DNA from: a bacterium
GTDB lineage: Bacteria; Patescibacteriota; Microgenomatia; Daviesbacterales; UBA10151
DNA: 64,000 nt
Reading direction: 5' to 3'
NCBI GenBank assembly: GCA_021790255.1
Contig: JAJYIE010000001.1
Span: 4,165 to 68,164 of the forward strand
The position numbers and the translations under genes were made by a program. Positions within the stretch are counted from its first letter, which is position 1, and every line of letters starts with the position of its first letter. The notes below the pieces were generated by a model, which saw nothing but the letters and a program-made list of their open reading frames with translations, ran no database searches and was not told where the DNA came from. This document shows, piece after piece, positions 29,897 through 56,974 of this stretch.

Positions 29897-30646
29897 ATGC
29901 CCACTTTTTTTTCATCAATTGTGCTTGAAAATAAGAAACTCAACGATAAGTTCCACCATCTTCGCCTCCGTGCAGAAAACCCGGACTTTCAGTTTAAGAC
30001 CGGCCAATTTACTGTTCTCAAGATTGACAGTCTCACGTACCGCAGTTATTCCATTTCTTCAACTCCGCAAAAACTCCCTCTTTGGGAGATGTTTGTGGAT
30101 GTCACACCGCAGGGCCCCGGCACACGTTACCTGGAAAGCCTAAAACCCGGCCAGGCTATTGAAACCAGCAGACCTGCCGGCAATTTCATCATCACCCAAA
30201 AGGCTCCCAGGAATATTATTTTTGGTGCCACTGGATGTGGGATTGCCTCAATTAAACCCCTTATTGAACAACTCCTTACTCAACCCGCTTCGCCAGCCAA
30301 GCAGAACGAGCAGCCGGCAATCCACATCCAACTCTTCTGGGGCCTGCGGCATATCAAAGACATTGTCTGGCAGGAAAATTTCAAGCAGTGGGCTAAAGAC
30401 CATCCTAGTTTTCATTATCAGATATATCTTTCCCGCCCTGAGGGGCCGTGGGACGGTAAGACAGGCCATATAAATACCGGTCTGCTGACACTCACCAAAA
30501 CGCTGCTTCCACTTCAAACCGCAGTTTATCTTTGCGGCAGCCTGGAAATGATCACGGATATCACTGAGCAATTGTCGGTTGCGGGTTTCCCGGATAAGCA
30601 AATCTTTTTTGAGCATTACTTTGCTGGGAATAAAAACCGGACATAG
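29897..30646 (+). CDS. FAD/NAD(P)-binding oxidoreductase (ferredoxin-NADP reductase-like).
   Basis: 249 aa. RSYSISS (RxYS FAD motif), GATGCGIASI (NAD(P) motif) and a C-terminal YLCGSLEM. Confidence 0.75.
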   Translation: MPTFFSSIVLENKKLNDKFHHLRLRAENPDFQFKTGQFTVLKIDSLTYRSYSISSTPQKLPLWEMFVDVTPQGPGTRYLESLKPGQAIETSRPAGNFIITQKAPRNIIFGATGCGIASIKPLIEQLLTQPASPAKQNEQPAIHIQLFWGLRHIKDIVWQENFKQWAKDHPSFHYQIYLSRPEGPWDGKTGHINTGLLTLTKTLLPLQTAVYLCGSLEMITDITEQLSVAGFPDKQIFFEHYFAGNKNRT

Positions 30647-31733
30647 GCCAGTTTTCCCCAAAACCTTTAACCAGTGTTATCTTAATATTATTCGCCAACC
30701 TGCCCGATCTTCTCTTAGCTAAGCTGGTAGAGGTCCCCCTGACCAAACCTAAAGCATAGGACAAATGAGCAACTAAAAATAACAGCGGCAGGAAAAGCGC
30801 CAGGTAAAGCTTTCTCCTCCTTTTGGAAAAACCCGCAGCAGAAGCAAATGCGGCAGCAAAATAGACAAATATCGGCATTAAAACCAAGGCTGCATGGTAA
30901 AAAAACAGTAAAACAAAATACAAAAGCAAGCCCAGTGGTAACAGAAATAGTTTGCCTGTTCTAAACCCAGTTACCCGCAGGTTTTCCATCCGCCCCCGGC
31001 CGTAGTTGAAAAACATCTCCATGATTGTACTTAAAGATTCACGCCTTGGCCGGTTAACATAGATCCCCGGGTGATAAATCAAGCCATAGCCCTTTCTGCT
31101 CAGCCGGCTTAAAAACTCGTTTTCTTCATTCGGATAAAGTTCTTCACGAAACCCTCCCGACTCACTAAAGACTTTCCTTCGGACAGCCAGATTACATAAG
31201 ATCAGCTCCCTCTCGTCGGTAAAACGAAAACGGCCGGTGGGCCGAAACCTGCTGCTCATAACATAGTATGCAAAAAAAGATTCAAGGATAATCCCGCCTA
31301 TCGATGCCCAGAATGATTCCCGGCGGTTCCAGATACTCGGGCCTCCGACTACGGCAATCTTTTCTCGGGGCCGGCGGCTGGAAAAAAACACTTTCTCCAC
31401 CTGCTCACAAATCAAAGGAGGAAGTACGGAGAAAGTCCTCATCGGAGCCGGCCCACCCAAATCTTGACCCCCAAAGGCTGCTACAACACGGGTCAAAGAT
31501 TCCCGGGAAAGTTCAGAATCGTTATCCAAAAAATACAGAATCTGCCCGCGGGCAGATTTTGCCGCCTCGTTCCTTTGCCGAGAAGGGGATGAACCCTGAC
31601 AAATGATCACTTCTAAAAGCCGGGGGTCAAAATCCAGTCTGGTCAGAGATTTTAAAGAAGCTCCGGGAAACTCGGTAGGCCGGGCTGCAATAATAATACT
31701 GAATTTAGGCTGCTTGCTTTCCATATTCGCCAT
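30561..31733 (-). CDS. GT2-family glycosyltransferase with a C-terminal TM domain.
   Basis: FSIIIAARP N-terminus, YFLDNDSE DxD-like motif and 3-4 C-terminal TM helices. The start is chosen downstream of the upstream gene's stop; the track's 31799 start would overlap it by ~95 nt. Confidence 0.7.
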   Translation of the reverse strand: MANMESKQPKFSIIIAARPTEFPGASLKSLTRLDFDPRLLEVIICQGSSPSRQRNEAAKSARGQILYFLDNDSELSRESLTRVVAAFGGQDLGGPAPMRTFSVLPPLICEQVEKVFFSSRRPREKIAVVGGPSIWNRRESFWASIGGIILESFFAYYVMSSRFRPTGRFRFTDERELILCNLAVRRKVFSESGGFREELYPNEENEFLSRLSRKGYGLIYHPGIYVNRPRRESLSTIMEMFFNYGRGRMENLRVTGFRTGKLFLLPLGLLLYFVLLFFYHAALVLMPIFVYFAAAFASAAGFSKRRRKLYLALFLPLLFLVAHLSYALGLVRGTSTSLAKRRSGRLANNIKITLVKGFGENWPMSGFYSQQSNAQKRFAYPGNPQPTIAQ

Positions 31734-32649: not shown

Positions 32650-33693
32650 GTGGCAAATATGTCCCACAAGCTCACTTATCTGGTTATATCTTTGACACAC
32701 CGGTGCAATTCCCGCTGTCAGGCTTGTCTTGAGTGGCAAATGCCGGCCCCCGATAAAAACAGAGAACTTTCGGCCGGACAATACCGGCAAGTATTTCAAA
32801 GCTGGAAAGACACTATTCCCTACTTATCATTTGTCGGCGGGGAGGCTTTCCTGCGGGAAGACCTGGCAGAAATTGTGATTACCGCTGCAAAAAATTTACA
32901 CCCGAAGAATATCAACCTGGCCACAAACGGGCTTCTGCCTGAAAAAATTGTGAGCGACACTAAAACTATCTTGTCAAAGATCCCTTTCTCCACCATCCTC
33001 ACAATTAATTTATCTATTGACGGAGTTCGGCATGTCCACGATTTCAGCCGGGGAGAAAAGGGGTTTTTTGCTAAACTATTTTCGACTTATCATGGTCTGA
33101 AGCCGCTCCAAAAAGATTTCCCAAATTTACGCATCGCCTTCCACAGTGGTTTATCTGTTTATAATAACACCCGCCTTCCGGCACTATTTCGCCTCCTGGA
33201 AAGCCTTAAACCGGATAGCTATATACTGGAACCTGCTGCCGACAGAGATGAACTGCTGGAAAAGATGCGCAAGGTGCAAATAGATGCAACCAGCTGGCAA
33301 AATATAATACAAAAACACAAAAAAGCCCTTTGGGACTTAAACGGCAAGGTAAGCCTGCCTTATCATTTGGCTCGTTTCGGCTATTATCCCTTTTCCGCGG
33401 AAGTTTTAAAAAAGTTCGACCAGGTTATCCCCTGTCAGGCCGGCAGGAAAGCTCTTTTTATTGACCAGGCAGGAAATGTCAAAGCCTGCGAAAACCGTCC
33501 TACAATTGCAGGTCTCCCTCAGTTTAAATACAACCTAAAGAAAATTTTCCACTCCAATACCACTAAGGCTGAGCAGCAAAAGATTGCCGTCCGAGAGTGT
33601 TTTTGCCACAGCAGTTACCACTATTATATCAGTATCGAAAGCAGGCCCTGGTATTTGGTAAAATTACTGCTGAAAATGCTCATGGACAGATGA
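32650..33693 (+). CDS. Radical SAM protein with a C-terminal Cys-rich (SPASM/twitch-like) region.
   Basis: 347 aa. CNSRCQAC (CX3CX2C) at residues ~19-26. C-terminal Cys residues (CQAGRK...NVKAC...CFCHSS). Confidence 0.8.
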   Translation: MANMSHKLTYLVISLTHRCNSRCQACLEWQMPAPDKNRELSAGQYRQVFQSWKDTIPYLSFVGGEAFLREDLAEIVITAAKNLHPKNINLATNGLLPEKIVSDTKTILSKIPFSTILTINLSIDGVRHVHDFSRGEKGFFAKLFSTYHGLKPLQKDFPNLRIAFHSGLSVYNNTRLPALFRLLESLKPDSYILEPAADRDELLEKMRKVQIDATSWQNIIQKHKKALWDLNGKVSLPYHLARFGYYPFSAEVLKKFDQVIPCQAGRKALFIDQAGNVKACENRPTIAGLPQFKYNLKKIFHSNTTKAEQQKIAVRECFCHSSYHYYISIESRPWYLVKLLLKMLMDR

Positions 33694-35093
33694 CTGATGT
33701 TTTGCTAATCAACCCTTACGCCAAATCCACTACCTGGGCCTCCGGTTACCGGGTTATGCCCTTGGGGCTTTCCTATATAGCCTCTTTTTTGGAGCAATCA
33801 GGTGTTATTGTTAAAGCGCTTGATTTAAACATTAACCATCTCTCCTCCCAGGAGCTGAAAAAAATCATCTTGCGGGATAAGCCACGCCTGGTCGGGATAA
33901 CTGCGACCACCCCTATGGTTAAAAGCAGCTGGCAGCTTGCCGAACTGATCAAGGAAACAATTGACACAAAAATTGTTCTGGGGGGGCCGCATCCCTCTGC
34001 CTTACCGGAAGAGTCGGCTTCGTTGCCCCAAATTGACTTTGTTGTCAACCACGAAGGTGAAGAAACTATGGCAGAGCTTACAAAAGCAATTTTTAACCAC
34101 CAGCCAACCACACAAATCCCAGGGATAAGCTACAAAAAAGGGCAGCAAGTGATAAACAACCTGCCCCGCCCTTATATTAAAAACCTGGACAGCCTGCCTT
34201 TTCCGGCCCGCCACCTTTTCCCTGTCAAAAAATACCGTCCCTCCCAACCACTTTTATCGATGCGCTACCCCGCTGCGCACATTTTGACCTCCCGTGGATG
34301 TCCATATGGCTGCAACTTTTGTTATAAGGGTGTTTTCGGCAGAACTTACCGGACCCGTTCCGTAGAAAGTGTGTTAAATGAGTGGGAAATATTGGTTAAA
34401 AAATATAAGGTCAAAGAGATTGAGATTGTTGACGATAATTTTGCCCTTGATGTCTCGCGGGCAATTAAGATCTGCGAGGGAATTATCCGCCGGAAGTTGG
34501 TCGTTCCCTGGGCAACCTACTCCGGAATCAGGGTTGATCATCCTCATTCCGGGGAACTAATTAAGCTGATGAAAAAAGCCGGCTGCTACCGGATCGCTTT
34601 TGGGGTAGAATCCGGGTCGGACAAAGTTTTATCCCGCATTGAGAAAAAAATCAGCACCCGCCAAGTGCAAAAAGCTGTTGCTACTGCGAAAGAGGCAGGA
34701 TTTTTAACTATGGCATATTGTATGGTCGGCAATATTGGCGAAGACAGACAAACCATGCAGCAGACAGTTGATTTTGCCAAAAACTTAGGCTGCGACTTTG
34801 CCCAGTTTACCGTCAGTACCCCCTTCCCCGGTACCGCACTTTATAGGCAAGTGCTCGAAGAAGGCAGGCTTCTGATAACCGATTGGGACCGGTTTGATAA
34901 CATGGGCGGCAAAGCTTTTTTTGAAATCGGCAGTGTCAGGAAAGATGATGTAGAACAGATGCGGAGCAAGGCTTATTGGCAGTTTTACACTCAGCCGCGG
35001 GTTTTGTTAACTCTGGGGCGAAAAATGGTTGAAAATCCCAGGATGATACAATTTTTCCTGCCAAAACTGCTGTCTGCTATCAAAAGGTCATGA
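33690..35093 (+). CDS. B12-binding (class B) radical SAM protein.
   Basis: N-terminal cobalamin-binding Rossmann-like domain. Radical-SAM motif SRGCPYGCNFC. ATGA overlap with the upstream gene. Confidence 0.85.
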   Translation: MTDVLLINPYAKSTTWASGYRVMPLGLSYIASFLEQSGVIVKALDLNINHLSSQELKKIILRDKPRLVGITATTPMVKSSWQLAELIKETIDTKIVLGGPHPSALPEESASLPQIDFVVNHEGEETMAELTKAIFNHQPTTQIPGISYKKGQQVINNLPRPYIKNLDSLPFPARHLFPVKKYRPSQPLLSMRYPAAHILTSRGCPYGCNFCYKGVFGRTYRTRSVESVLNEWEILVKKYKVKEIEIVDDNFALDVSRAIKICEGIIRRKLVVPWATYSGIRVDHPHSGELIKLMKKAGCYRIAFGVESGSDKVLSRIEKKISTRQVQKAVATAKEAGFLTMAYCMVGNIGEDRQTMQQTVDFAKNLGCDFAQFTVSTPFPGTALYRQVLEEGRLLITDWDRFDNMGGKAFFEIGSVRKDDVEQMRSKAYWQFYTQPRVLLTLGRKMVENPRMIQFFLPKLLSAIKRS

Positions 35094-36112
35094 AAATTTT
35101 TTTAACCGGCGCTACCGGTTTTATCGGTACTCACCTGGCAGATGCCCTCATTGGCAAGGGCTATGAAGTCTGCTGTCTGGTCAAAAGTCCGGGTCAGGCA
35201 AAGAATCTAAAGCAAAAAGGGTGTCACACCATAACAGGGGACCTTACCGATATTCACCTGGGCAGGAAAATTTCTCCCGAACTAACAAATACCGACCTGG
35301 TCATTCACCTGGCAGCACTTTTTGCCGAATGGGGGCCTTCAAAAGGGGACTACCAGGAAGTGAACGTCGAAGGTACAACCAGGCTGCTGCAAGCCAGCTG
35401 GGAAAACCGGGTAGAGCATTTTATTTTAATCAGTACGGCTCATGTTTTAGGCAACCCTCCAAACCATACACCCGCTGCGGAAACAGACACACCTCATCCG
35501 GATTCAGGCTATGCCCATTCCAAACTAGCTGCAGAAAAAAAGGCAGTGGCTTATTTTAATAAAGGGCTGCCGGTCACAATCCTTCGGCCGACGTTCGTTT
35601 ACGGCCCCGGGGACAGCCGCGGAGCGTTCTTCCGTTTTTTTCAAAGGATTAAAAACGGCCGGGTAATCATTGTCGGATCCGGCCGAAATTTTTTCCAGCC
35701 GCTTTTTGTCGAAGACCTGGTTGCTGCCATCCTTGCTGCTGCCAAAAAGCCCGGCCGCGGTGAAATTTATCTTATTGCCGGCAGGCAGCAGATCAGGCTG
35801 CAACAACTGCTGAAGCTTCTGGCAAAGTCCCTGAAAGTCCGCAATCCCAAAATTATCAGGCTTCCGTATTTACTCAGTTTAGCTGTCAGTTATCCTGCAA
35901 GCACACTGTTTACCTTGGGCAGAATGCTTCATCTGCCGATTCTAAGAGATGAACCATTTCTGGAGCCGCGTAAAGTGAAATTCAGTACCGGTAGCTTCAC
36001 TTATAAAATAACCAGGGCGGAAACAGATTTGGGATATCGTCCTCGCCACAACCTCAAGATTGGACTCAGGGAAACTGCTGAAAGTTTAGAAAAATCATTT
36101 CCTCTTCTCTAA
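35090..36112 (+). CDS. NAD-dependent epimerase/dehydratase (extended SDR).
   Basis: 340 aa. GATGFIG Rossmann motif and a YxxxK-type catalytic region (YAHSK). ATGA overlap with the upstream gene. Confidence 0.85.
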   Translation: MKIFLTGATGFIGTHLADALIGKGYEVCCLVKSPGQAKNLKQKGCHTITGDLTDIHLGRKISPELTNTDLVIHLAALFAEWGPSKGDYQEVNVEGTTRLLQASWENRVEHFILISTAHVLGNPPNHTPAAETDTPHPDSGYAHSKLAAEKKAVAYFNKGLPVTILRPTFVYGPGDSRGAFFRFFQRIKNGRVIIVGSGRNFFQPLFVEDLVAAILAAAKKPGRGEIYLIAGRQQIRLQQLLKLLAKSLKVRNPKIIRLPYLLSLAVSYPASTLFTLGRMLHLPILRDEPFLEPRKVKFSTGSFTYKITRAETDLGYRPRHNLKIGLRETAESLEKSFPLL

Positions 36113-36730
36113 CCTCAACAGCAAATCTGCAGGGAAGATTGCGGAAAGAAGACAATTTAAATTTTTCCCAAGCCGCCCGATAGAGTTTGTAAAAACCATC
36201 TCCTCGATAGTAAAATCCCGGCTCACCAGGCTAATGAGTTGTCCCCGGCTCAGTTCCGCCAGATGAGAAGGATCATGAATCATGATTTTTTTGTACAAAC
36301 TGTGTTTATCAGGAGTAGAGATAATCAGGATCCCTTTATCTTTTAACACCCGGCCTGCTTCCCGCAAAAGTTTGGGCTGCTCACCGGAGCTGACATGTTC
36401 AATGAGATTGATCATAAAAATAGTATCAAATGATTTATCCCTAAAAGGCAGACGGTTATTTTTAAGTAGGATAAATTTAAGATTAGGATAAAGAGCGTGG
36501 GCACCTTTAACGGCTACTTCTGAGGTATCCACCCCGAAGCCTTTTGCTCCCGTGCAAAAACAACTCCAATGCAGCAGATAGCCTAAACCACAACCGATAT
36601 CTAAGATCTTTGCCGGGCGCTTAAGGTCTAACCACTGCCCGATTTTGGCAAAAAGCGGCACATCGCCCAGGTTAATCTTTAAATAATGGTCATAGCGGCG
36701 AAAATAGATTTCATTGTAATGATCATTCAT
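36095..36730 (-). CDS. Class I SAM-dependent methyltransferase.
   Basis: 211 aa. ILDIGCGLG motif I. Confidence 0.8.
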   Translation of the reverse strand: MNDHYNEIYFRRYDHYLKINLGDVPLFAKIGQWLDLKRPAKILDIGCGLGYLLHWSCFCTGAKGFGVDTSEVAVKGAHALYPNLKFILLKNNRLPFRDKSFDTIFMINLIEHVSSGEQPKLLREAGRVLKDKGILIISTPDKHSLYKKIMIHDPSHLAELSRGQLISLVSRDFTIEEMVFTNSIGRLGKNLNCLLSAIFPADLLLRLEKRK

Positions 36731-38189
36731 AGTCCGTCACATGACCAAAGTGGGAAAAAGCCCCCCGCATTAAAAATTTAATATCATTGAAACTTCGCAC
36801 AGAAAGAGTGGTTTTGAGCAAAAATACTGGATGCAGGTGTATATTCCAGATTTTTTTGCACCAGTAGGCATTATCAATATTGCTTTTTAAAACCGGCTGG
36901 CTCATATCGTATTTTTCAAATTTATGGGAGTCAATAATAAACCAGCTGTGTCTTTCAGCCTGATTCCACAACGGCGTACCGGGATAAGGCACAATAACTG
37001 AAGCCTGCAGGCTGTCCCCAACCCGTGTTTTATAAAACAGCAGCTCTTTCATAAAACTGAGGGTTGCTGCCGCATCCTCTTCTTTTTCCCAAGGATATCC
37101 CACCATTGCTGAAAGATGAACGATCAACCCGGCATCTTTGGCGTTTTTAACCCCCCATCGGATTATTTCTGTTGTCTCACCTTTGCCGATCATCTTAAGG
37201 GTACGGTCAGTACCCGCCTCCACACCAACTTTAAGCATCCTGAAACCACATTTTTTTAAAAGTCGACATGTTTTTTTATCCAAAACATCCGCCCGGGAAT
37301 TGGCAGAGAACTTAATTTTGCCAAGCAATTTTTCTTTTTTTAAAAGCTCATAAAATTGCGAGAGCCAGGCAAAGTCATAGTGAGCGCCCCCGTCGGTATC
37401 GTCAAAAATTTCCCTGATTTTATACTTGCCTACCAAAAACCGGATTTCTGAAACTACATGCTCGGGGGAACGAAGCCTGGGTTTTAAAGCCCAAAGACAG
37501 TGCTGCCAAATGCAAAAAGTGCAGGCGCCGGGCCTTCCGTCTACACCACCGCATCCCCGCCCAAACATCATGTAGGCGCAGGGGCTTAAAACGTCAGCCT
37601 CTTTGTATTTCCAAAAACGAGTCAGATCCCGGTCAATTAGCGGTGATTGGTCCAGATTGTGATTTGGTATAAACTCTCCGGTGCTTCTGATCATCTTACC
37701 GGCCCTAAAATAGACCCCGTTCTCCAATTTTTCATCTTTTTCTAGATGCTCTGCCAAATTTACAGCCAGAAAATCCCAGTCTCCCCCTGTCAAAACATAA
37801 TCCGCCCTGCTTTCTTTAAGGCATTCCTTTGGAAAATATGTGACGTGGTCACCCACCAGCGCCACCTTCACATCCTTCCAGCGTTTTTTCAGCGAATCCA
37901 CAAACCCCCATGTTTTTCCAGCCACCGGAGCTTTTGTTTCCGTGATCACCAAATCCGGTTCGAATGCTTTCAGCCGGCGGAGGGTTTCTGCCATGCTCAG
38001 GTTCTCGGTAATTCCGTCCAGCCAGAAAACGGTATGGCCTGCCTGCCGCAACATAGTTGCCGCCGTGGCAGCTAGAACAGGATAAAGCCGGACCTCTTTG
38101 GAGGAAGAATAAACAAACTGGCGGTTTTGAGGCAGGAAAGCAACTTTTTGGCCCTTTTTAAAAGGAGGATAAACAAAGGCAACTCTCAT
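36723..38189 (-). CDS. B12-binding radical SAM protein with a non-canonical CX9CX2C cluster motif.
   Basis: 488 aa. N-terminal B12-binding-like domain. RGCGGVDGRPGACTFC in place of CX3CX2C. Confidence 0.7.
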   Translation of the reverse strand: MRVAFVYPPFKKGQKVAFLPQNRQFVYSSSKEVRLYPVLAATAATMLRQAGHTVFWLDGITENLSMAETLRRLKAFEPDLVITETKAPVAGKTWGFVDSLKKRWKDVKVALVGDHVTYFPKECLKESRADYVLTGGDWDFLAVNLAEHLEKDEKLENGVYFRAGKMIRSTGEFIPNHNLDQSPLIDRDLTRFWKYKEADVLSPCAYMMFGRGCGGVDGRPGACTFCIWQHCLWALKPRLRSPEHVVSEIRFLVGKYKIREIFDDTDGGAHYDFAWLSQFYELLKKEKLLGKIKFSANSRADVLDKKTCRLLKKCGFRMLKVGVEAGTDRTLKMIGKGETTEIIRWGVKNAKDAGLIVHLSAMVGYPWEKEEDAAATLSFMKELLFYKTRVGDSLQASVIVPYPGTPLWNQAERHSWFIIDSHKFEKYDMSQPVLKSNIDNAYWCKKIWNIHLHPVFLLKTTLSVRSFNDIKFLMRGAFSHFGHVTDYE

Positions 38190-45072: not shown

Positions 45073-46317
45073 TCAGGTATACTCACGGATATATTTTTCC
45101 AAAATATCGGCGTGCCGTTCCCAGGAAAAACTCCTTTTTACTCTTCTCCAAGCTGATAACCCCATTTGGCTTCGCTGGGTTTGGCTTTGCAATGCTTCCA
45201 CAATCTTATCAGCAAAATCTTCCACCACATACGGTTTGGCCAAAAACCCGGTCACTCCGTTTTTGACCGTTACTGTCGGCCCGGCAAAATTCCAGGCTAC
45301 AACAGGCACTCCCCACCCCATTGCCTCAATCACCCCCATCCCAAAATCCTCCTCCGGCGCAGTATAAATATAAACCGCAGCGTTGCGGTATAACTTCTGC
45401 AGAGTTTCCTCATCTACCTGTCCGGTAAAGATCACTCTTTTATCTACTCCCAGCTTCCTGGCCAGGCTGATCAGGTTCAGGGTATAAACAGTATGCGGAC
45501 CCGGAATAACCAGGCGCAAATTGGGGTGCTTTTTTAATACCAGCTTCAGGGATGCAATACCGTATTCAAATTTTTTCTGCGGAACATGGCGGTTAGTAAG
45601 CAGGAAAAAGGGGCGGTTTATCCTAAAGACCCGTCCGGCCAGATTTTCAGCTTTAAACCAACCTGTGTAAGCAGTATGGGGGTTAACCCGCAAAAGTTGC
45701 CGGGGCCAGACATTGGCTCCGGCCGGGCAGGTGACGGTTTTCCGGCCATAAACTGACTCGATTACCTGGCCAATATACTCCCCGTTGACAAGCATCACCC
45801 GGCCGGAAGTAAAAGAAACTCTGTCTGCCCAGGTTACAAATCGCTTAATTTTTCTGATCAGCCGGTCGATATAGTAGTATTCCTTAAGGTTTTGCCAGCG
45901 AACCGCTTCATCAATAGCCCGGGGATAAAGCAGGCGGTTAGGCTGGTTTAGGTAAACCAGGTAAGGTTTGCCCAGTACTCGGGAGACACAGTAGGCAATC
46001 CAAGCCCCAGGCTGGTTGGCACCGATAATTACATCGTATCGGCGGAACCGCCAGGCCAAAAACGGCGCCAGCAGTGATGAAAGTACCATGGATGCAGCGT
46101 ATCGTGCCGGTATGAATGGTGGAAATTGAGGTAAAAATGTTTGCACATTTAAACGTTTAATCTCTTCCGGAAAGCATAACTTATTATTCAAGGTTGGCGA
46201 ATAGACATCGACCAAATAACCTCTCGCCCGCAAGTTTTTTGCCTCTTCCAAGACCAACCTCTCTCCTCCTCCTGAATAAACAAAACCGCAATGGAAAATG
46301 GCAATCTTTTTTTTCAT
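45073..46317 (-). CDS. GT1/GT4-family glycosyltransferase.
   Basis: EX7E motif EEDFGMGVIEAMGWGVPVV. N-terminus MKKKIAIFHCGFVYSGGGE. The ATG at 46317 overlaps the upstream stop (ATGA). Confidence 0.85.
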   Translation of the reverse strand: MKKKIAIFHCGFVYSGGGERLVLEEAKNLRARGYLVDVYSPTLNNKLCFPEEIKRLNVQTFLPQFPPFIPARYAASMVLSSLLAPFLAWRFRRYDVIIGANQPGAWIAYCVSRVLGKPYLVYLNQPNRLLYPRAIDEAVRWQNLKEYYYIDRLIRKIKRFVTWADRVSFTSGRVMLVNGEYIGQVIESVYGRKTVTCPAGANVWPRQLLRVNPHTAYTGWFKAENLAGRVFRINRPFFLLTNRHVPQKKFEYGIASLKLVLKKHPNLRLVIPGPHTVYTLNLISLARKLGVDKRVIFTGQVDEETLQKLYRNAAVYIYTAPEEDFGMGVIEAMGWGVPVVAWNFAGPTVTVKNGVTGFLAKPYVVEDFADKIVEALQSQTQRSQMGLSAWRRVKRSFSWERHADILEKYIREYT

Positions 46318-47703: not shown

Positions 47704-49464
47704 TTACAACAGGTCCTGTTTAACTGTTACCTGCTTTGCTCCTTCTGTTTGAATTACCATCATACCGAAGCCGTCAGTACTGCTTCCGAGCAATTCCCCT
47801 TTTTCTGAATAGGCATGAATGCCAGGGGAAAAGTTTACCAGGAGCAATACACAAGAGCTCCCTTCGCTGGAAATTTCCCAACCCTCAGTTGTTTTTTTAA
47901 CCGGTAAAGGCTTCCCCCAGGCCGAAAGATAGTTTTTTAAAACGGCTCTGTCATTACCTGTTTGAGGATGTTTTATATTCAATATAGCATTTTTATCCAC
48001 TGCCCACGCTAAATTATTACCCTCAAATTCATAGACAGTTTCACCATTACCGCTCCACACAAGTTTTCCCAGCTCATCCCACTTATCCAGATTTTTAAAA
48101 TCGTGGTAGTATTCCGTAGATTTGCTGCCTTCCACCAAAACTGCCCTGACCCCCAAAATTTTCAGCCACATTCCGGCAATATCCGCATCTTTTCCTTCAC
48201 GAATCTGATAAGAAGCCATCGCCCAAACAGGATTTTGTGAAACCTCATCGCGTCCGCCCCGCACCTGATCAAGGCCGTACAGGTTGTCTGCCCAAAATAC
48301 CGGCGTGCCTGACAGGAAAACCCTGCCCTGATCACCAACCAAAAAGTTCAGCGCACTCAAGCCATCAAGACCCGGCGGCAAAATCGGCGATAAAAGCGGC
48401 GGGGTACCCAACGCTGCATAAATTCTGAGCGTCAGCAGCCAGGGCAGATAAAATAACGCTACCGCTCCCCCTATCCCCCTAAAACCTCTAATCTCCTTTG
48501 TCCCTCCTGCCAAAAGCAAAGCTATCCCAACCTCAATTTCAGCGAACCAGCTTGTCCAATCCTGCCAAAAGTCAGGGTTCAAAATCAGCCGGTATACAGT
48601 GAGGATCGCAAAAGTTAAAAGCCAGATTAAGGCAAAACCCATTAAACCACCCTTGCTTTTCCTTCCCAACTTAACCACCCAAATTGCCGCCGCCACAGGC
48701 AAAGCTGCCTTGGCAAAGCCGATTAACTGCCAGATTGCCGTCCAGCCGCTCGCCCCGCCTATTGAAGGGTTACTCAAAATCGTCCACCAAAATTGGGGGG
48801 TATACCAAAAAGTCACCAACACAAAAGCTGATATTAGAACAGGCAAAACATCCTTCAGGCGGTCAACAAAGTTTTCTGTAGTCCCCTGGTTCTCCGTTTT
48901 TTCCCGGCTTGCTGCTGCCCAGGCCAAAGCTGCCGCCCCCACCAGTAAAACCGGTATGACCGAGGTGCTAATAAGCAATGCCAGACTTATAAATAGTGTT
49001 GCCGGAATCGCTCTCAAATAAGTTTTTTGGGTAAAATAATATTCCAGACTGATTAAAGCAAAGGGCACTAAGCTCTCTGCCAATACATTCACCGGGTTGC
49101 TTAAAGCTAAGGCAGATAGGTACTTCCAGGGTAGTGCTAAATATATTGCTCCCGCCGTCATCCCAATCACCCCCGTCTCCCTTACTCCTCTTACCCCCGC
49201 CAGTCTTCCTGCCAGGAGTCCCCAACCGAATGCCTGTACCAAAAAACCGGTTGCTAAAATACCGTAGGTTAGCTCAAAAAAAGACAGCCAGGGGAAAACT
49301 GTCTGCAGGTAAAGCAAAAGCTGTGGCAATACCGGCCCCGCCAAAAATCTGACCGGTACCCCCAAATACCAGTTTGGGTAAATTGCCCACCAGCCGTGGG
49401 CCTGCACAAAGCCGGTCACAGCCAAAACTACCGGGATAAGCGATGTCTGTGGCGGATAAACCAT
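47704..49464 (-). CDS. Polytopic membrane protein with a C-terminal extracytoplasmic domain (GT-C-like).
   Basis: 586 aa, multi-TM, followed by a soluble ~200-aa C-terminus. Confidence 0.55.
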   Translation of the reverse strand: MVYPPQTSLIPVVLAVTGFVQAHGWWAIYPNWYLGVPVRFLAGPVLPQLLLYLQTVFPWLSFFELTYGILATGFLVQAFGWGLLAGRLAGVRGVRETGVIGMTAGAIYLALPWKYLSALALSNPVNVLAESLVPFALISLEYYFTQKTYLRAIPATLFISLALLISTSVIPVLLVGAAALAWAAASREKTENQGTTENFVDRLKDVLPVLISAFVLVTFWYTPQFWWTILSNPSIGGASGWTAIWQLIGFAKAALPVAAAIWVVKLGRKSKGGLMGFALIWLLTFAILTVYRLILNPDFWQDWTSWFAEIEVGIALLLAGGTKEIRGFRGIGGAVALFYLPWLLTLRIYAALGTPPLLSPILPPGLDGLSALNFLVGDQGRVFLSGTPVFWADNLYGLDQVRGGRDEVSQNPVWAMASYQIREGKDADIAGMWLKILGVRAVLVEGSKSTEYYHDFKNLDKWDELGKLVWSGNGETVYEFEGNNLAWAVDKNAILNIKHPQTGNDRAVLKNYLSAWGKPLPVKKTTEGWEISSEGSSCVLLLVNFSPGIHAYSEKGELLGSSTDGFGMMVIQTEGAKQVTVKQDLL

Positions 49465-51780: not shown

Positions 51781-52416
51781 TTATTTTTTGACCTTAAACA
51801 CCACTGCCAGTCCCCAGAAAGCTGTTTTTTCTTCGGTGATAACTAGTCCGACCCTCCGGAGTGAAGTGTCAATACTTTTCCTGCTCAGGCTGTGCAAGTG
51901 GGCTCCCCGCCAAACTTTTCCGGGGCCGAAGCGAATCCACCAAAACCAGCCGGCTTTAAACCGAGCACTCAGGCTGTCCACTGATAAGATCAGATAACCG
52001 TCCGTCTGAAGACAACGGGAAATTTCTGCCAACACCCGCTGCGGATCCAGAACGTGTTCCAGCAGTTCGGTCGCTAAAATTATCCTGAACTGCCCATTCC
52101 GGAATGGTAAATTATGGGCATCAGCCGTGATAAATTTCACCCCCGGGTGTTTCCGCCTGGCAAATTCCACAAAATTCCGGGAGACGTCAATCCCGGTAAC
52201 AGCAGCATCCGGAAAAACTGACTTAACCTTGGCGGTTATTTCACCGGAAGCGCAGCCAACGTCCAGAACGCTGTCGGGTTGGTCCTCCAGCAATCCGCGG
52301 ATTACTTGCCATTTTCTGCCATGCCAGGTCCGCTGGAGCCGATTCTGCCCAATCCCCTTCTCGTAATAATCCGCTGGAGCCTGAGCCCAGATCAGCTTCA
52401 ATTTCTTCTTATCCAT
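51781..52416 (-). CDS. Class I SAM-dependent methyltransferase.
   Basis: 211 aa. VLDVGCASG motif I. Confidence 0.8.
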   Translation of the reverse strand: MDKKKLKLIWAQAPADYYEKGIGQNRLQRTWHGRKWQVIRGLLEDQPDSVLDVGCASGEITAKVKSVFPDAAVTGIDVSRNFVEFARRKHPGVKFITADAHNLPFRNGQFRIILATELLEHVLDPQRVLAEISRCLQTDGYLILSVDSLSARFKAGWFWWIRFGPGKVWRGAHLHSLSRKSIDTSLRRVGLVITEEKTAFWGLAVVFKVKK

Positions 52417-54704
52417 ATCTTGGCCTTAAGCGTGATAACCAGTATTGCTCCGGCCACTCCCGCCAGAGCAAAAATACTGATCCTTACCCCAAAGTAAAAG
52501 CTGTCCGGATCGTAGGTAAAAACCACGCTGTGTTTGCCCTCGGGTACCGGCACTGCCCGGAAAGCATAATCCGCCCGCAGAATTTTAGTTTCCCGACCGT
52601 CTACATAAGCTTTCCAGCCGGGATAGTAAGTATCCGACAGAAAAAGATACCCATTTCCTGAAGCCTGGGTGCTCACATCTATTTTTTGATCCGTGTATTT
52701 TGTAAATAAAGCGGTGGCAGCATAGCCGCCCTGGGCCTTCCATGTCGTATGGTCCACGCTCTTCACCTCAGCAGCGCTCCGGCCGGATAAAGAATCCAGC
52801 CACCCCAGTACCCCGTCAAATACGGAAAGCGGCAAGCTTTTGTCCTCATCATCCACGAAAATTTCATTTTTCGGATCAAAGTCGCCTTTTAAAAGACGGG
52901 CTTTTATATCTGCCGGCGCAGCTTTTTCCGCTTTGGGCACCATAAAAACCCGTGGGAAATAATCTGTAAACTCATAAACGTACACAGGATCCTGACCGTT
53001 TTGAAAATTTACCTGGAAAGCTTTAGTTAACAGGTCGTTTTGTACAGGCTCAGTTAAGAGTACAAATCGCACTCCCATCAGCCTGTTTAGAAAGAGGAAA
53101 GAATCTGAAAGCTTGAGGGTATTTATATCCGGATAGCTTATCCCGTTGTAGAATATCTCATATTCCAACTCATTGTAGCGGTCCAGTTTCAGGCCTCCGG
53201 AATTGGCAATGCCGACATTTTCCGGGATACCGTACATCAAATTGTTAAAAACCGGAAGCAGGTTTCTCAGGTTGATAAAAACATCCGGATCTCCCCAAAG
53301 ATCCGGTTTTTCCAGGAATATTTTTAAGCTCGGATAAAAGTAGTACTCCGTTGTAACCCTTTCCTGATCACTCAACTTCCCCTGCAAAAAAGTGGCTACC
53401 TGCGGCTTTTTGTACCAGCTATTTGTATCAACACTGGGGTGTAAATCCACCGCGGCAATTTTCAGGTTAATAAAACTGAATAAGATCACCGCTCCCGAAA
53501 TACCGAAAACAGCCGCCTTGCTGATTTTAATCTTCTCCAGGCCGCTTTGCAGCTCCTGCATCGAGAAAGCCGCAAGGACCCCCAAAGAAAAGCTCACCAA
53601 AAAGATCAGACGAAATGGGATCCGGAAAAATGAAAACGGCATCAGGGTCAAAATGTACCCAACTGTAAGCTGAGAGCCGAAAGATAAAAGCAACGCTATA
53701 CCGGCTGTTGCCAGAAAAATGTAACTGTAAGGAGTGTACTTTTTCAGCCTTAATAAGGCAAAGGCCGCCAGAACCAGGCCCAGAAGCCCTAGATAAACAT
53801 ACCTTTCATCTGCCGGCCAGCCATTATTTATAAAAGCACTGAAAGTATGGCTCCCATCAAAGGTGGCCTGTGGAGCGATAAAATCCGCAAGGTTGGACAG
53901 GGGAAAAGAATATTGGTTAATTGAAGATGCTGCCAGCCCAGCTGACCTGCTGGAGTGGAGCATCAGTTCTGCTTCCGGCAAGACCTGGACAGCTCCAATA
54001 GCAAAACCGCAGAAGACAAAAAGCGCGAAGTAAGGAATGAAAGAAAAAGTTGCTTCTTTCCTCCGGTACCAAAACAGCATCCAGTAAAAAAACAAGAAAA
54101 TCAGGCTGTAAAAGATAACCTGGGGATGGCCGCCTAGAAGCGACAACCCCAGCAAAACCCCCATTAAAAGTACCCAAATTGCTTCTTTCTTCTTCCCCTG
54201 CAGAAAAACTTCCAGAAAATAGAGCTGGCCTACGAAAAGGTAGAAGGAAACCACCATCGGAAAACGGACCAGTTCACCCACAGCAAAACCTGAAAAAGTA
54301 ATAATCGAGGCGCCGAAAAACGCTGGAAAGGCAAACAGGCGGATCTTTGATAAATATAAAAAGCTGAGCAGAAAAAGAAAAAAGAAGCTACAGACCAGTG
54401 TTATATTGATTGAGGTGGTAGTATCGAAGTATGCTGCCAGCAGATTTAACGGATAGAGAGCTCCAATTTGCCCATCAGCAAAAAGGGGGAAACCACTGCT
54501 TATAGCAGAAGACCAAAGTGGCAGCTGCCCCTCTCTGAGAGACTGCGAGAGAAAATAACGGAAGGGGTAATGCAAATCCGTCAGCTCATTGGTTCCAACA
54601 TTAGGGGTAATATTGACCGCCCCCCTCAGATTGCCGATCAGGAAAAACACCACTAAAGCCAGACCGGCTAAAACTGACGCCAGCAGGCTAAGCCTCTTTT
54701 TCAT
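52398..54704 (-). CDS. YfhO-family membrane protein (second paralog).
   Basis: GGHPQVIFY. C-terminal SDTYYPGWKAYVDGRETKILRADYAFRAV...TYDPDSF followed by a TM helix. Confidence 0.8.
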   Translation of the reverse strand: MKKRLSLLASVLAGLALVVFFLIGNLRGAVNITPNVGTNELTDLHYPFRYFLSQSLREGQLPLWSSAISSGFPLFADGQIGALYPLNLLAAYFDTTTSINITLVCSFFFLFLLSFLYLSKIRLFAFPAFFGASIITFSGFAVGELVRFPMVVSFYLFVGQLYFLEVFLQGKKKEAIWVLLMGVLLGLSLLGGHPQVIFYSLIFLFFYWMLFWYRRKEATFSFIPYFALFVFCGFAIGAVQVLPEAELMLHSSRSAGLAASSINQYSFPLSNLADFIAPQATFDGSHTFSAFINNGWPADERYVYLGLLGLVLAAFALLRLKKYTPYSYIFLATAGIALLLSFGSQLTVGYILTLMPFSFFRIPFRLIFLVSFSLGVLAAFSMQELQSGLEKIKISKAAVFGISGAVILFSFINLKIAAVDLHPSVDTNSWYKKPQVATFLQGKLSDQERVTTEYYFYPSLKIFLEKPDLWGDPDVFINLRNLLPVFNNLMYGIPENVGIANSGGLKLDRYNELEYEIFYNGISYPDINTLKLSDSFLFLNRLMGVRFVLLTEPVQNDLLTKAFQVNFQNGQDPVYVYEFTDYFPRVFMVPKAEKAAPADIKARLLKGDFDPKNEIFVDDEDKSLPLSVFDGVLGWLDSLSGRSAAEVKSVDHTTWKAQGGYAATALFTKYTDQKIDVSTQASGNGYLFLSDTYYPGWKAYVDGRETKILRADYAFRAVPVPEGKHSVVFTYDPDSFYFGVRISIFALAGVAGAILVITLKAKIWIRRN

Positions 54705-56974
54705 TTGGCCGTTTTCTCCACTGCAGCGGAGGGGCTGGCTAAGTTATCCGTCTGAGCCGCTGTTTCCCCTGTTTGCTTAGAGGACTTATCCTGCAGATCA
54801 GAAATCATACTCTGGGCTTCCTGGGCCAGTTCCCCGTCACCGCTTCCTAAGACTGACAGATAATCCTGCAAATAATTTATGGCGCTCGCGTAATCCGGCG
54901 GTTTCTTCTCGTACCCATAAATTCTTCCCAAACCTGCCAGTGCTTCCTTAAAATAAGGGTCAATCTGAAGCACCCGCTTATATTGGGTAATGGCATCATC
55001 ATATAGTTTCACCTGTTCAAAAACATACCCCAGATTATAGAAATGACGGCTGTAGTAAAAGATAATTAATCCTTCAAAGAGCGGGGCATCCCTTTTTATT
55101 CTGGCAAACGATGCTAAATCCAGGCTGTTCCAGAATTTGTCGTTTTCTGCCCGGTAATCCTCCAGCTTCAGGCTCTTTCCGGACTTCAAAACCAAAAAGA
55201 GCATATTTTTCGGCCAGAGGGTATATTTTTGCTCAAGCTCAGGGTCATGAACCACCAAGTCCGGGTTAACATAAATGGGGCGTCTACCGTAGTTTGCATT
55301 AACCAATTGAGTAGTAGATGTGAACACTTTCCCGGGTTTAGGCGTCGGAATGACTAAATCAGGGTAGCGTGCTTTCAGTTGCGGGATAAACCAGGCGAGG
55401 TGGAACTGGCCGGGCGAAAAAGTAACCATGTGATCTTTTCCTTTCTGCTGCACGTAGCGGAAATAGTCCATGGTCATGCCGGCAATATCACCCGACTGCA
55501 ACACCAGGGCGTTATCCGGAAGACCGGCGTAAGCTGCTTGCGTATAATCAATTGTCGCTGTCCCCGCCCGGCCGTTGGCACGGTCGAAATTTATAAGGAA
55601 AGGGGTGACAAAAGAGGTTATAAGCAGCACTTTGCCGATGGCCAGTCCGAATCTCTGATCAGCGGAGCCACTCAGAATTTTATTCTTAATCGAGAATACC
55701 CCGTCTGCTTGCAGCGAGGATGAATCAATCACAGAAGAACCTGCCCGGGGGGAAACCTCGCCAGCTTTGCTGCGAGGTAGTTCATTAAATAATTTATATA
55801 TCATCAGCAGTCCGAATGCTATAAAAAGAGTAACAAAAATGTTCGGCAGCATAAAAAACCGTGCCGCTGTTGCCTGGCTGAAATCATCTCCCAGAGGGAA
55901 ATCGGCGTAAGCAAGAAAAAGAAAGCCGCTTACAAAAAAACCCGTGCTGATAAAAATAAGTATCCGGTGAAAGGCAAGGGGCCTCCCCCGCCCCTCCTTC
56001 CACAGATAGAAAATACCGGCCACAGCAAAGATTGCCCCGATGATCGAAAAATCAAGGACAATATATTTCAAGTAAAACCAGGCCTCCTCAAACACAGACG
56101 GCGCGCCGCTGGTATCCGATCCGGCCAGGTAGGCAGAAAAAGTCCCGAAGTCCTGGCGGGTTAGGGCGCTTATCGCATCCGGAATAGTTTTTATACCCCC
56201 CCAATTAAGCGGCGGGTTTTTTGAGGCAATAAAGATCAGCAAAAATACATACGGCAGAATCCCCACTAAAAAAGCCGGAATTATCAAAGCGGCCCTGGAC
56301 GGGCTCTTGAAGATATTTACTACCGGGGTTGTTAAAAGCAGAAAAAATACCGCCGGGAAAACCAACACCGCTGTTTCATGATGTGAGAAGGCAAATCCGG
56401 ACAAAACCGCCAAAATCAGCAGCATTTTTAAAGAGCTTAGAAAGGAAATGGTTGGCGCCGATTTAAACTTCCGGCAAATCCGCACCGTGATAAACAGGAT
56501 ACTTACTACAAAAAAGTTGTTTAGGGGAAACACTTCAAATTTAGTGGCATACTGCCAAAAAACAGTGTTAAAAGCTAAAAACATGCCGGCGGTAAATGCA
56601 ACCAGATAGTAGCCAGTTTCCGGGTCCTTATCCAGCCCGGAGTCCGGCAACCGGCGAGAGTCTGAGTCAGCGAGCCTGAAAAGATCCAGCACCAGAAAAT
56701 AAAACACGAGCACGCTCAAAGCTTGAAGGAGCGCGGAAACCGCATTAATCCGCTCAATCGGGTTAAGCGGCAGCGGCAGTTCGTAAGCAATATGGCCCAA
56801 AAGCGTATTGACCGGGTAGCTTGGTTGGTGCGGTACTCCCAGCACCACGGCGGCAGTGACCATTTCAGTACTATCTCCGGCAGATATGGAGGGCGATAAA
56901 GTAAAAATATAGACGCAAAAAGGTATTAAAAAGGCCAAAAGGGCAACCAGTTGTTTAAAAATAATTTTTTTCAT
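54701..56974 (-). CDS. DUF2723/TMTC-like polytopic membrane protein with C-terminal TPR repeats.
   Basis: N-terminal SAGDSTEMV motif region. About 11 TM helices. TPR-like repeats (YDDAITQYKRVLQIDPYFKEALAGLGRIY). Confidence 0.65.
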   Translation of the reverse strand: MKKIIFKQLVALLAFLIPFCVYIFTLSPSISAGDSTEMVTAAVVLGVPHQPSYPVNTLLGHIAYELPLPLNPIERINAVSALLQALSVLVFYFLVLDLFRLADSDSRRLPDSGLDKDPETGYYLVAFTAGMFLAFNTVFWQYATKFEVFPLNNFFVVSILFITVRICRKFKSAPTISFLSSLKMLLILAVLSGFAFSHHETAVLVFPAVFFLLLTTPVVNIFKSPSRAALIIPAFLVGILPYVFLLIFIASKNPPLNWGGIKTIPDAISALTRQDFGTFSAYLAGSDTSGAPSVFEEAWFYLKYIVLDFSIIGAIFAVAGIFYLWKEGRGRPLAFHRILIFISTGFFVSGFLFLAYADFPLGDDFSQATAARFFMLPNIFVTLFIAFGLLMIYKLFNELPRSKAGEVSPRAGSSVIDSSSLQADGVFSIKNKILSGSADQRFGLAIGKVLLITSFVTPFLINFDRANGRAGTATIDYTQAAYAGLPDNALVLQSGDIAGMTMDYFRYVQQKGKDHMVTFSPGQFHLAWFIPQLKARYPDLVIPTPKPGKVFTSTTQLVNANYGRRPIYVNPDLVVHDPELEQKYTLWPKNMLFLVLKSGKSLKLEDYRAENDKFWNSLDLASFARIKRDAPLFEGLIIFYYSRHFYNLGYVFEQVKLYDDAITQYKRVLQIDPYFKEALAGLGRIYGYEKKPPDYASAINYLQDYLSVLGSGDGELAQEAQSMISDLQDKSSKQTGETAAQTDNLASPSAAVEKTAK

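Follow-up and report, generated by a model that had tools for sequence, protein, structure and literature searches.

A Patescibacteria envelope-glycan island in which radical-SAM enzymes may tailor lipid-linked sugars

In the described three-component glycosylation systems, such as GtrB-GtrA-GtrC, CsbB-GtcA-YfhO, PgfS-PgfM1-PgfE-PgfM2 of S. mutans and ArnC-ArnD-ArnE/F-ArnT, a family 2 glycosyltransferase (GT2) first attaches a sugar to polyprenyl phosphate. The loaded sugar is then flipped, and a membrane transferase of the GT-C type (YfhO, PMT-like or ArnT-like) catalyzes its transfer on the outer side of the membrane. The Arn pathway modifies its sugar while it is lipid-linked, by means of ArnD. 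The Pgf system, with two YfhO paralogs and an epimerase, glycosylates Thr-rich surface adhesins. No radical S-adenosylmethionine (radical-SAM) enzymes occur in these systems. Here, we analyze a gene island that encodes four of them together with GT-C transferases of the same general kind. It lies in a 64,000-nt stretch (hereafter the window) of contig JAJYIE010000001.1 from a Daviesbacterales bacterium. The organism belongs to the candidate phyla radiation (CPR). Like DPANN archaea, CPR bacteria attach to the host cells on which they live, and the surface chemistry of both groups is almost unstudied.

The explanation that we favor, tentatively and at a little below an even chance, is an envelope glycosylation island of several modules: its radical-SAM enzymes would tailor sugars carried on lipids, and its GT-C enzymes would then transfer these sugars to acceptors at the surface. 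The membrane-associated GT2 of each module would load a sugar on a lipid, either polyprenyl phosphate or a membrane lipid. The lipid-linked sugar would be tailored in the cytoplasm by the radical-SAM enzymes g03, g04, g07 and g09, the extended short-chain dehydrogenase/reductase (SDR) g05 and three class-I methyltransferases. After flipping, the GT-C enzymes (PTPS_related, PMT_2-like, two YfhO, and TMEM260-like with tetratricopeptide repeats, TPR) would pass the modified sugars to extracytoplasmic acceptors, one candidate being the adjacent Ser/Thr-rich protein g19. The scheme would amount to three-component lipid-carrier glycosylation with an added radical tailoring step. What the analysis establishes is the identity of the genes, their domain architectures and coupling, the conservation of the modules and the excess of GT2 genes among the neighbors; substrate class, sequence of steps, acceptor and chemistry are inferred from these. 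Every domain family involved, and the lipid-carrier frame itself, are already known. No earlier description seems to exist of B12-domain and twitch radical-SAM enzymes embedded systematically in that frame, or of such modules being multiplied in CPR and DPANN genomes. An earlier interpretation made from the DNA letters and their open reading frames (ORFs), referred to here as the sequence-only reading, had proposed an island making a radically modified sugar and knew of no characterized pathway with this gene combination. We also found none in the searchable literature, and no description of the combination from CPR or DPANN organisms.

The ORF map and the Pfam and NCBIfam scans recover the inventory and positions given by the sequence-only reading: four radical-SAM enzymes, three methyltransferases, an SDR, a GT2, a GT4, two YfhO proteins and a DUF2723-TPR protein (Table 1). 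Three of the radical-SAM enzymes (g04, g07 and g09) had been assigned to class B, and all three carry PF02310 and PF04055 above cut-off (B12-binding domain at 74, 36 and 74 bits, respectively). The canonical CX3CX2C cluster motif is present in g04 (C204) and g09 (C221), two proteins that are 34% identical, and in 144 of the 149 B12-type enzymes scored across the fetched loci. In g07, the assignment holds for the domains and fails for the motif, as the cluster sequence CGGVDGRPGACTFC is CX9CX2C (C213...C223xxC226). This spacing is kept by the g07 orthologs in locus L086 and in the Nealsonbacteria loci L002-L004.

Among the top 70 representatives of the g07 clade (P0260-P0329), first-Cys spacing takes the forms CX3, CX4 (RDCWWGKCTFC), CX7, CX9, CX10, CX12 and CX17-18, with CX9 in g07 itself, L086 and L002. 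Five homologs of 665-972 aa (P0267, P0268, P0269, P0270, P0273) carry intein-like insertions exactly within the radical-SAM Cys motif. One insertion type sits at the third Cys (CTF|C[FV]xxxTxIxT...HSYTA...N|CSWTT) and the other at the first (GRD|CFPAGTLVET...AVHN|CWWRR).

Precedent for radical-SAM action on lipid-linked sugars comes from two systems, which we count in favor of the proposed scheme. In the HpnI/HpnK/HpnJ hopanoid branch of Burkholderia cenocepacia, a GT2 (HpnI) puts a hexosamine on a lipid, and the B12-domain radical-SAM enzyme HpnJ then rearranges the sugar by a ring contraction on lipid-linked glucosamine; calditol synthase Cds likewise acts on a glycolipid head group, converting its hexose to a carbocycle (PMC9204698, PMC13459092). 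HpnJ is the best or second-best curated match of all three B12-type enzymes of the island: g04 scores 198.8 bits to BchE and 192.9 to HpnJ, g07 scores 154.0 to HpnJ and 97.2 to BchE, and g09 scores 180.1 to HpnJ and 176.1 to BchE. P-methylase, RiPP (ribosomally synthesized and post-translationally modified peptide), ladderane-lipid, HpnR, BzaD and Mmp10-like models all score lower. HpnA is in turn the best match of the SDR g05. The likeness has limits, since the island proteins score at a quarter to a third of cut-off (577.6 bits for HpnJ, TIGR03471), the organism is a CPR bacterium, and the enzymes are tied to GT-C transferases and not to hopanoids. Cds, GrsA/B, Gms and Gmm act on membrane-anchored substrates, as proposed here for the island enzymes, and the pairing of a SPASM/twitch with a B12-type radical-SAM enzyme recurs among them (PMC11214058, PMC13459092). 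They differ in belonging to archaeal tetraether-lipid pathways, with homology at the generic radical-SAM level.

Scores exclude the island enzymes from the curated class B families, among them HpnJ, BchE (TIGR02026, cut-off 481 bits), AprD4 (NF033070, cut-off 500 bits), PhpK and HpnR. Context also speaks against HpnJ, as squalene-hopene cyclase (shc), hpnH, hpnG, hpnI and hpnK are absent among the scanned ORFs of the window, and against BchE, as the window has no photosynthesis genes.

A second line of comparison leads to apramycin biosynthesis. AprD4, a radical-SAM enzyme whose N-terminal domain is of the Rossmann (B12-like) type, dehydrates a sugar diol (it is a paromamine 1,2-diol dehydratase) and works with a reductase, the NAD(P)H-dependent AprD3, which finishes the C3' deoxygenation. 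The AlphaFold2 model of g04 (mean confidence, pLDDT, 94) has the full class B architecture, and its best mutual TM-score is with AprD4 (0.75/0.77), followed by TsrM, MgmA, CysS, TokK and OxsB; the TM-scores of these six superpositions, AprD4 included, are 0.63-0.75. AprD4 is also the best Protein Data Bank (PDB) sequence match of g04. The resemblance is at the level of fold only, with family scores of 88, 38 and 75 bits for g04, g07 and g09. Unlike g04 in the proposed scheme, AprD4 belongs to an antibiotic pathway, takes a free pseudodisaccharide as its substrate and does without cobalamin. As g04 matches AprD4 in fold and its gene is in translational coupling with that of the SDR g05, diol dehydration followed by reduction is a real candidate for the g04-g05 pair.

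Three radical chemistries seem plausible by analogy: MoeK5 and GenK offer a model for C-methylation, HpnJ and Cds one for ring contraction to a carbocycle, and AprD4/AprD3 one for diol dehydration with SDR reduction to a deoxygenated sugar. The sugar C-methylating class B enzymes MoeK5, GenK, GenD1 and Fms7 share the domain architecture of the island enzymes, a likeness of architecture and not of direct sequence comparison, and they belong to actinomycete antibiotic pathways. MoeK5 methylates a sugar on a lipid-phosphoglycerate scaffold and clusters with HpnJ and Fom3 in a sequence-similarity network, and HpnJ and BchE are non-methylating members of class B (PMC9204698). Since the best curated matches of the island enzymes are to these non-methylases and the best structural match of g04 is to AprD4, C-methylation is only one of the three reasonable chemistries. 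The C-methylated version of the earlier proposal is not favored over the other two.

The curated matches of g05 count in favor of the lipid-linked scheme. In NCBIfam it scores highest to HpnA (137 bits) and OleD (124 bits), both lipid-associated extended SDRs; these matches lie below cut-off and ahead of RmlB and GalE, and its PDB matches are generic epimerases. The B12-type enzyme/SDR pair is found again in L086 and L090. In L090 (Anaerolineae, JBRAJR010000010.1, 4624-13626), a g03-like radical-SAM gene lies about 5.5 kb upstream of an NTP_transferase, B12-type enzyme and SDR trio, and shell genes of a bacterial microcompartment (BMC, two EutN) and a class II aldolase lie between them.

The fourth radical-SAM enzyme, g03, opens the g03-g04-g05 operon. 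Its CX3CX2C motif occupies residues 19-26, and its tail carries the signature CX12GX4C plus CXC (C259, G272, C277, C314, C316; numbering follows a homolog alignment whose first row starts at window position 32659, three residues into the ORF), which is invariant or nearly so in 14 homologs. The SPASM/twitch-like tail that had been read in g03 is borne out by this signature and by the fold. It finds no support in Pfam SPASM, which the window copy does not match in our scan and which its homologs match (PF13186). The four C-terminal Cys indicate a predicted one-cluster twitch type and not a full SPASM domain. The AlphaFold2 model (pLDDT 93) superposes on SkfB, BlsE, MoaA, anSME, DesII and BtrN. 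The family is rare, with 17 matches in 5.8 billion proteins, and a g03-type gene lies directly upstream of a B12-type gene in 10 loci from several phyla.

The maturases SkfB, CteB, SuiB and WgkB are among the best structural and sequence matches of g03, and the B12-type enzymes weakly match ApyD and RiPP C-methyltransferase models, as would be expected if the twitch and B12-type enzymes modified a ribosomal peptide. We consider such RiPP maturation extremely improbable. The intergenic gaps contain no precursor-like ORF, the sole short one (18 aa, in the 91 bp of the divergent promoter region) being a chance ORF; there is no protease and no ABC exporter; and the neighbors of the relatives are glycosyltransferases. 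The position of the g03 cluster motif, from residue 19, leaves no room for a RiPP recognition element (no dedicated profile search for this element was run).

An indication of the substrate comes from what lies next to g04-family genes elsewhere. Searching species-representative genomes once, with one peptide pattern, gave 80 loci at identities of 34-46%, from Kiritimatiellota, Firestonebacteria, Elusimicrobiota, Omnitrophota, Hydrogenedentota, Patescibacteria, Dehalococcoidales, Bathyarchaeia, Iainarchaeia, Aenigmatarchaeota, Methanothrix, Methanoperedens and others. After ORF calling and clustering, the commonest neighbor clusters in 89 loci were GT2 (50), GT4 (24), SDR (21), g03-like radical-SAM (18) and methyltransferases (15). 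Of the 79 usable species-level loci, 27 have a GT2 as an immediate neighbor and 36 have one no more than three genes away; within that distance, 50 have some glycan-type gene and 24 a second B12-type enzyme. GT2 frequency is 40/410 at three positions or closer vs 7/350 at six or more (odds ratio 5.3, p=6e-6). Pfam analysis of 126 immediate neighbors puts Glycos_transf_2 first with 28 genes, followed by glpX (a convergent neighbor specific to Dehalococcoidales) and then by GT4/GT1, Radical_SAM/SPASM, methyltransferases and epimerases.

Most adjacent GT2s (21/27) are of a type, here called A, that scores best to AglJ, PpgS and dolichyl-phosphate hexose transferase; we therefore regard them as polyprenyl-phosphate glycosyltransferases. 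As many as 18 of these 21 lie directly upstream of the B12-type gene on the same strand, some with 4-nt overlaps, and in Dehalococcoidales and Methanoperedens the AglJ/PpgS-like GT2 and the B12-type gene that follows it form a two-gene pair. Type B GT2s, which are g01-like and MftF/EpsD-like, travel with g03-like radical-SAM genes (L011, L022, L087, L088, L091). Because the commonest neighbor across phyla is an AglJ/PpgS/dolichyl-phosphate-hexose-transferase-like GT2 directly upstream, a lipid-linked sugar is the likely substrate, a conclusion that we infer and do not regard as proven. It replaces the nucleoside-diphosphate (NDP) sugar of the sequence-only reading.

Tailoring at the NDP-sugar stage, in which the radical-SAM enzymes, SDR and methyltransferases would act on soluble nucleotide sugars and the GT2, GT4 and GT-C enzymes would incorporate the products, nevertheless has points in its favor. 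g05 has the fold and motifs of an NDP-sugar epimerase/dehydratase, NTP_transferase and UDP-GlcNAc 2-epimerase genes occur near homologs, and g03 is similar to two enzymes with nucleotide-linked sugar substrates, DesII and BlsE. We judge it fairly unlikely. The GT2 and B12-type pair occurs in many Dehalococcoidales without any NDP-sugar biosynthesis gene, the nearest curated relatives work on lipid-linked or free glycosides, g05 prefers HpnA and OleD as described above, and we know of no NDP-sugar substrate for any B12-domain radical-SAM enzyme.

Beyond this island, we suggest that g04-type enzymes are a widespread uncharacterized class which, together with the twitch enzymes and the CX4-18CX2C clade, may modify polyprenyl-phosphate-linked or glycolipid sugars directly, by radical C-methylation, deoxygenation or conversion to a carbocycle. 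This generalization is possible and on balance rather doubtful. The family is large, with E<=1e-10 in 6,771 of the 8,000 scored candidates.

The neighborhood is conserved in related and distant genomes; the lack of conservation that the sequence-only reading had named as grounds against itself is not observed. The nearest g04 relatives, at 64-69% identity, lie on contigs that also carry g03 orthologs (including the partners of P0002 and P0004). In the closest relative locus, L086 (65% identity), g03-g04-g05 is accompanied on the other strand by DUF218, an ArnC/PgfS-like undecaprenyl-phosphate GT2, the g07 ortholog directly after it, a methyltransferase orthologous to g06 (244 bits) and EamA. 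At about 50% identity, L087 and L088 have one operon of a PTPS_related-like membrane protein (915 aa with a weak PMT_2 match in L087, 521-553 aa in L088), a B12-type enzyme, a methyltransferase (267-284 aa), a TIGR00374 flippase-like protein, a SPASM radical-SAM enzyme and a type B GT2. Orthologs of g02, of about 270-284 aa, directly follow the B12-type gene in L087, L088 and L089, and g01-orthologous GT2s adjoin g03-like and B12-type genes in L087, L088, L002, L011, L022 and L091. Nealsonbacteria locus L002 reads PTPS_related, a 677-aa polytopic protein, g07 ortholog, three more radical-SAM genes (B12-type ones among them), GT4, UDP-GlcNAc 2-epimerase and GT2. The Aenigmatarchaeota locus L005 contains seven B12-type enzymes, a g03-like one, methyltransferases, GT2s, PMT_2 and a flippase-like protein. 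Flippase candidates, TIGR00374-like or EamA, are found across L087, L088, L005, L048 and L086.

Two further Patescibacteria loci bear on how the island is organized. L010 has four PTPS_related genes, four GT2, three B12-type, one g03-like and three methyltransferase genes, in repeated modules of GT-C, methyltransferase, GT2 and B12-type enzyme, and L016 reads radical-SAM, B12-type enzyme, GT2/TPR fusion and PMT_2, with two YfhO-like genes a few genes downstream. These arrangements suggest that the island probably holds several parallel modules feeding different GT-C enzymes, and not a single linear pathway. The gene after the B12-type enzyme in L016 (11311-13548) encodes a 745-aa fusion of GT2, TPR repeats and Peptidase_MA_2, and PMT_2 is directly next to it.

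The gene junctions divide the island into six or more transcription units: g02-g01 and, diverging from it, g03-g04-g05; g08-g07-g06; g09; g14-g13-g12 together with g11-g10; g15; and g19-g18-g17-g16. The ATGA and CTAG overlaps noticed earlier do exist. The ATGA overlaps are at the g03/g04, g04/g05 and g18/g17 junctions, and the CTAG, at 42597-42600, is the convergent junction of g09 and g10. With so many units on both strands, with B12-domain radical-SAM families of very large size and varied function (g07 alone has 24,803 matching representatives at E<=0.001), and with 29/79 loci that have no glycan-type gene within three genes, one may ask whether independent envelope genes are simply juxtaposed here and the radical-SAM enzymes act elsewhere, for instance in post-transfer modification of a polymer or protein or in cofactor chemistry. 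This is unlikely, as the same family combinations, translationally coupled, recur in distant lineages. The clustering is beyond chance: relatives keep the same families together, and beside the B12-type family GT2 genes are overrepresented.

The GT-C part of the scheme rests on several membrane protein families. Seven or more GT-C-like transferases had been proposed; from the profile matches, we count four firm candidates (g08, g15, g17, g18) that exceed the Pfam gathering thresholds and three tentative ones (g10, g13, g14) that are weak or borderline. For PF10131 (threshold 26.4 bits), g08 is above, and g13 and g14 are below. g10 matches PF13231 with E 1.2e-5, just short of 26.1 bits. g15 and g17 clearly exceed the 28.5 bits of PF09586, with 10-12 predicted transmembrane (TM) helices, and g18 exceeds the 24.2 bits of PF11028. 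g15 and g17 are 26% identical over about 790 aa, and in single-sequence hhalign comparisons among the polytopic proteins only these two YfhO paralogs gave a signal of relatedness. g15 weakly matches the PgfM2 C-terminus. The PgfM1/M2 equivalog scores are 26-32 bits vs cut-offs of 1400-1500. A permissive Pfam scan found no family match for the N-terminal half of g08 or for g11. In other genomes, PTPS_related-family proteins of about 910-925 aa flank B12-type and methyltransferase genes (L002, L010, L087), PMT_2 proteins stand beside B12-type genes (L005, L016, L087), and g13-related proteins of about 677 aa accompany PTPS_related genes (L002, L087). The PMT_2, TMEM260-like and YfhO families include protein O-glycosyltransferases.

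The giant protein g19 had been taken for a possible acceptor. Its sequence predicts one fused chain that begins with a processive-type GT2 and TM helices, continues with a linker rich in Ser, Thr and Pro, an MG2 domain and an ectodomain rich in Thr and Ser, and ends in a TM anchor. Residues 2-133, at the start of the ORF, match positions 72-164 of the Glyco_trans_2_3 profile, which form the C-terminal half of a processive-type GT2, along with CelA/PgaC-like pieces, and no in-frame stop occurs up to 63998. Ser and Thr make up 25.5% of g19 vs 11% of the remaining island proteins. The share of Ser+Thr+Pro is 50% over residues 290-420, that of Ser+Thr is 32% over residues 1200-1900, and no internal repeats were found at E<=1e-5. 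Because of this Ser/Thr-rich ectodomain, g19 is a plausible glycan acceptor, and with its N-terminal GT2 it is not an acceptor only.

Several points weigh against the lipid-linked scheme. First, the Pfam and NCBIfam scans found neither a clear GtrB/ArnC-type polyprenyl-phosphate GT2 nor a recognizable flippase (GtrA, EamA or TIGR00374-like) in the window, and both are present only in related loci; the GT2 of the window, g01, is MftF/EpsD-like with two C-terminal TM helices. Second, no island protein reached an equivalog cut-off in the NCBIfam scan, and with HpnJ at 154-193 bits vs 578, function transfer at the family level is therefore weak. Third, the neighbor counts are not phylogenetically independent, as many loci are from Dehalococcoidales, and the sample derives from one peptide pattern. 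GT2 adjacency would also be expected of enzymes that work on NDP-sugars ahead of transfer or on the completed glycan. Fourth, cobalamin binding has no universal sequence signature; its use by g04, g07 and g09 is no more than probable, and the best structural match, AprD4, does not use it. Finally, MaoC-type dehydratase (MaoC/FAS1_DH) and RND/MMPL genes near the relatives in L087 and L088 would fit a lipid pathway.

The latter genes, with LPG_synthase_TM flippase-like neighbors in the same two loci, raise the question of whether the radical-SAM enzymes methylate, cyclize or cross-link membrane-lipid or polyprenol chains (cf. GrsA/B, Gms/Gmm, Tes and ladderane enzymes), the glycosyltransferases being merely co-located. 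The pairing of a SPASM/twitch with a B12-type enzyme is like that of Gms with Gmm (PMC11214058), and there are partial NCBIfam matches to the lipid B12/radical-SAM model TIGR04072 (144 bits), HpnR, Tes and HpnH. GT2 is, however, by far the commonest neighbor and lipid-synthesis genes are rare, none being in the window, and HpnJ and BchE outscore the lipid-tail families. To our knowledge, CPR bacteria also generally lack de novo lipid synthesis. Remodeling of lipid chains thus seems decidedly unlikely.

If the substrate is lipid-linked as we favor, radical chemistry would be added to lipid-carrier glycosylation, and new envelope sugars (C-methyl, deoxy, carbocyclic) would be predicted. Undescribed surface sugars would then be expected in CPR bacteria, DPANN archaea, Dehalococcoidia, Bathyarchaeia and some methanogens, and multiplied modules in episymbiotic CPR and DPANN organisms would diversify the surface that contacts the host. 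Small CPR and DPANN genomes invest heavily in glycan tailoring by costly Fe-S enzymes, which are probably cobalamin-dependent. There are four radical-SAM genes in this one window of a genome of the ~1-Mb class and eight in one DPANN locus, implying corrinoid dependence in organisms unable to make B12. The two-gene pair of AglJ/PpgS-like GT2 and B12-type enzyme is a minimal system that makes the question experimentally tractable.

Table 1. Genes of the island and its edges. Numbers g00-g19 follow the order of the ORFs from 29897 to the end of the window; families are from Pfam and NCBIfam scans.
Gene	Predicted product	Position	Strand	Basis
g00	FNR-like FAD/NAD(P)-binding oxidoreductase, 249 aa, peripheral	29897..30646	+	Pfam FAD_binding_6, NAD_binding_1
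g01	GT2 type B (MftF/EpsD-like, Glyco_tranf_2_3-like), two C-terminal TM helices	30561..31799	-	weak Pfam GT2 matches; NCBIfam MftF and EpsD pieces
g02	class-I SAM methyltransferase, 284 aa	31705..32559	-	Methyltransf_11, 74 bits
g03	twitch-type radical-SAM enzyme, one predicted auxiliary cluster; first of g03-g04-g05 operon	32650..33693	+	Pfam Radical_SAM, Fer4_12
g04	B12-binding-domain radical-SAM enzyme a, 467 aa, CX3CX2C	33690..35093	+	Pfam B12-binding ~74 bits, Radical_SAM
g05	extended SDR, 340 aa, GATGFIG and YAHSK	35090..36112	+	Pfam Epimerase, 150 bits
g06	class-I SAM methyltransferase, 211 aa; last of g08-g07-g06 operon	36095..36730	-	Methyltransf_11
g07	B12-binding-domain radical-SAM enzyme b, 488 aa, CX9CX2C	36723..38189	-	Pfam B12-binding 36 bits (cut-off 32), Radical_SAM
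g08	large polytopic PTPS_related (GT-C clan) protein, 993 aa, ~11 TM	38192..41173	-	PF10131, 36.6 bits; TM prediction
g09	B12-binding-domain radical-SAM enzyme c, 484 aa, CX3CX2C	41146..42600	+	Pfam B12-binding ~74 bits, Radical_SAM
g10	polytopic PMT_2-like protein, 552 aa, ~8 TM, probably GT-C	42597..44255	-	PMT_2 (PF13231) 26.0 bits vs cut-off 26.1
g11	193-aa protein, two C-terminal TM helices	44259..44840	-	TM prediction; no family match
g12	GT4 (GT-B fold) glycosyltransferase	45073..46365	-	Glycos_transf_1 108 bits, Glyco_transf_4
g13	polytopic protein, 452 aa, ~12 TM, weakly PTPS_related-like	46314..47672	-	PF10131, 22.1 bits, under cut-off
g14	polytopic protein, 586 aa, at least 5 TM	47704..49464	-	PF10131 13.4 bits, E 0.027 (sole match, permissive scan)
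g15	YfhO-family GT-C protein, 745 aa	49524..51761	+	PF09586, 63.5 bits
g16	class-I SAM methyltransferase, 211 aa	51781..52416	-	Methyltransf_11, 80 bits
g17	YfhO-family GT-C protein, 768 aa, paralog of g15	52398..54704	-	PF09586, 58.3 bits
g18	TMEM260-like (DUF2723) GT-C protein with C-terminal TPR, 757 aa	54701..56974	-	PF11028, 96.7 bits; TPR
g19	giant membrane/surface protein, >2,330 aa, ORF runs off window	56982..64000	-	Pfam Glyco_trans_2_3, MG2

The TM segments of g01 are predicted at residues 289-307 and 335-353. Its true start is probably a downstream ATG, and the protein was called as 390 aa in L001. The 3' ends of g00 and g01 overlap by about 86 nt. g00 stands next to island genes also in L001 only, which is a second contig of the same organism. 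Upstream of the island lie genes for NifU/IscU (27860-28258) and cysteine desulfurase (28262-29533), a small HTH gene and g00. NifU/IscU, the desulfurase and g00 could supply Fe-S clusters or reductant to the four radical-SAM enzymes, g00 as the possible electron donor for their clusters.

The TopA protein of the window is 65-69% identical to Candidatus Daviesbacteria and Microgenomates proteins, which supports the Patescibacteria assignment and, with it, the placing of an envelope-glycan island in such a genome. Scans of the window found no tRNA genes and no Rfam matches, and GC content stays at 0.44-0.51 along its whole length, with no compositional sign of a foreign island. The region upstream of the island is of housekeeping character (CTP synthase, TopA, ClpB, DprA, PBP2, MreBC, def/fmt, PBP1, IscS/NifU). 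Between mreB and def/fmt, at 19021-21153 on the plus strand, it includes a polytopic glycan enzyme outside the island, a 710-aa Wzy_C (O-antigen ligase-like) protein with a C-terminal TPR.

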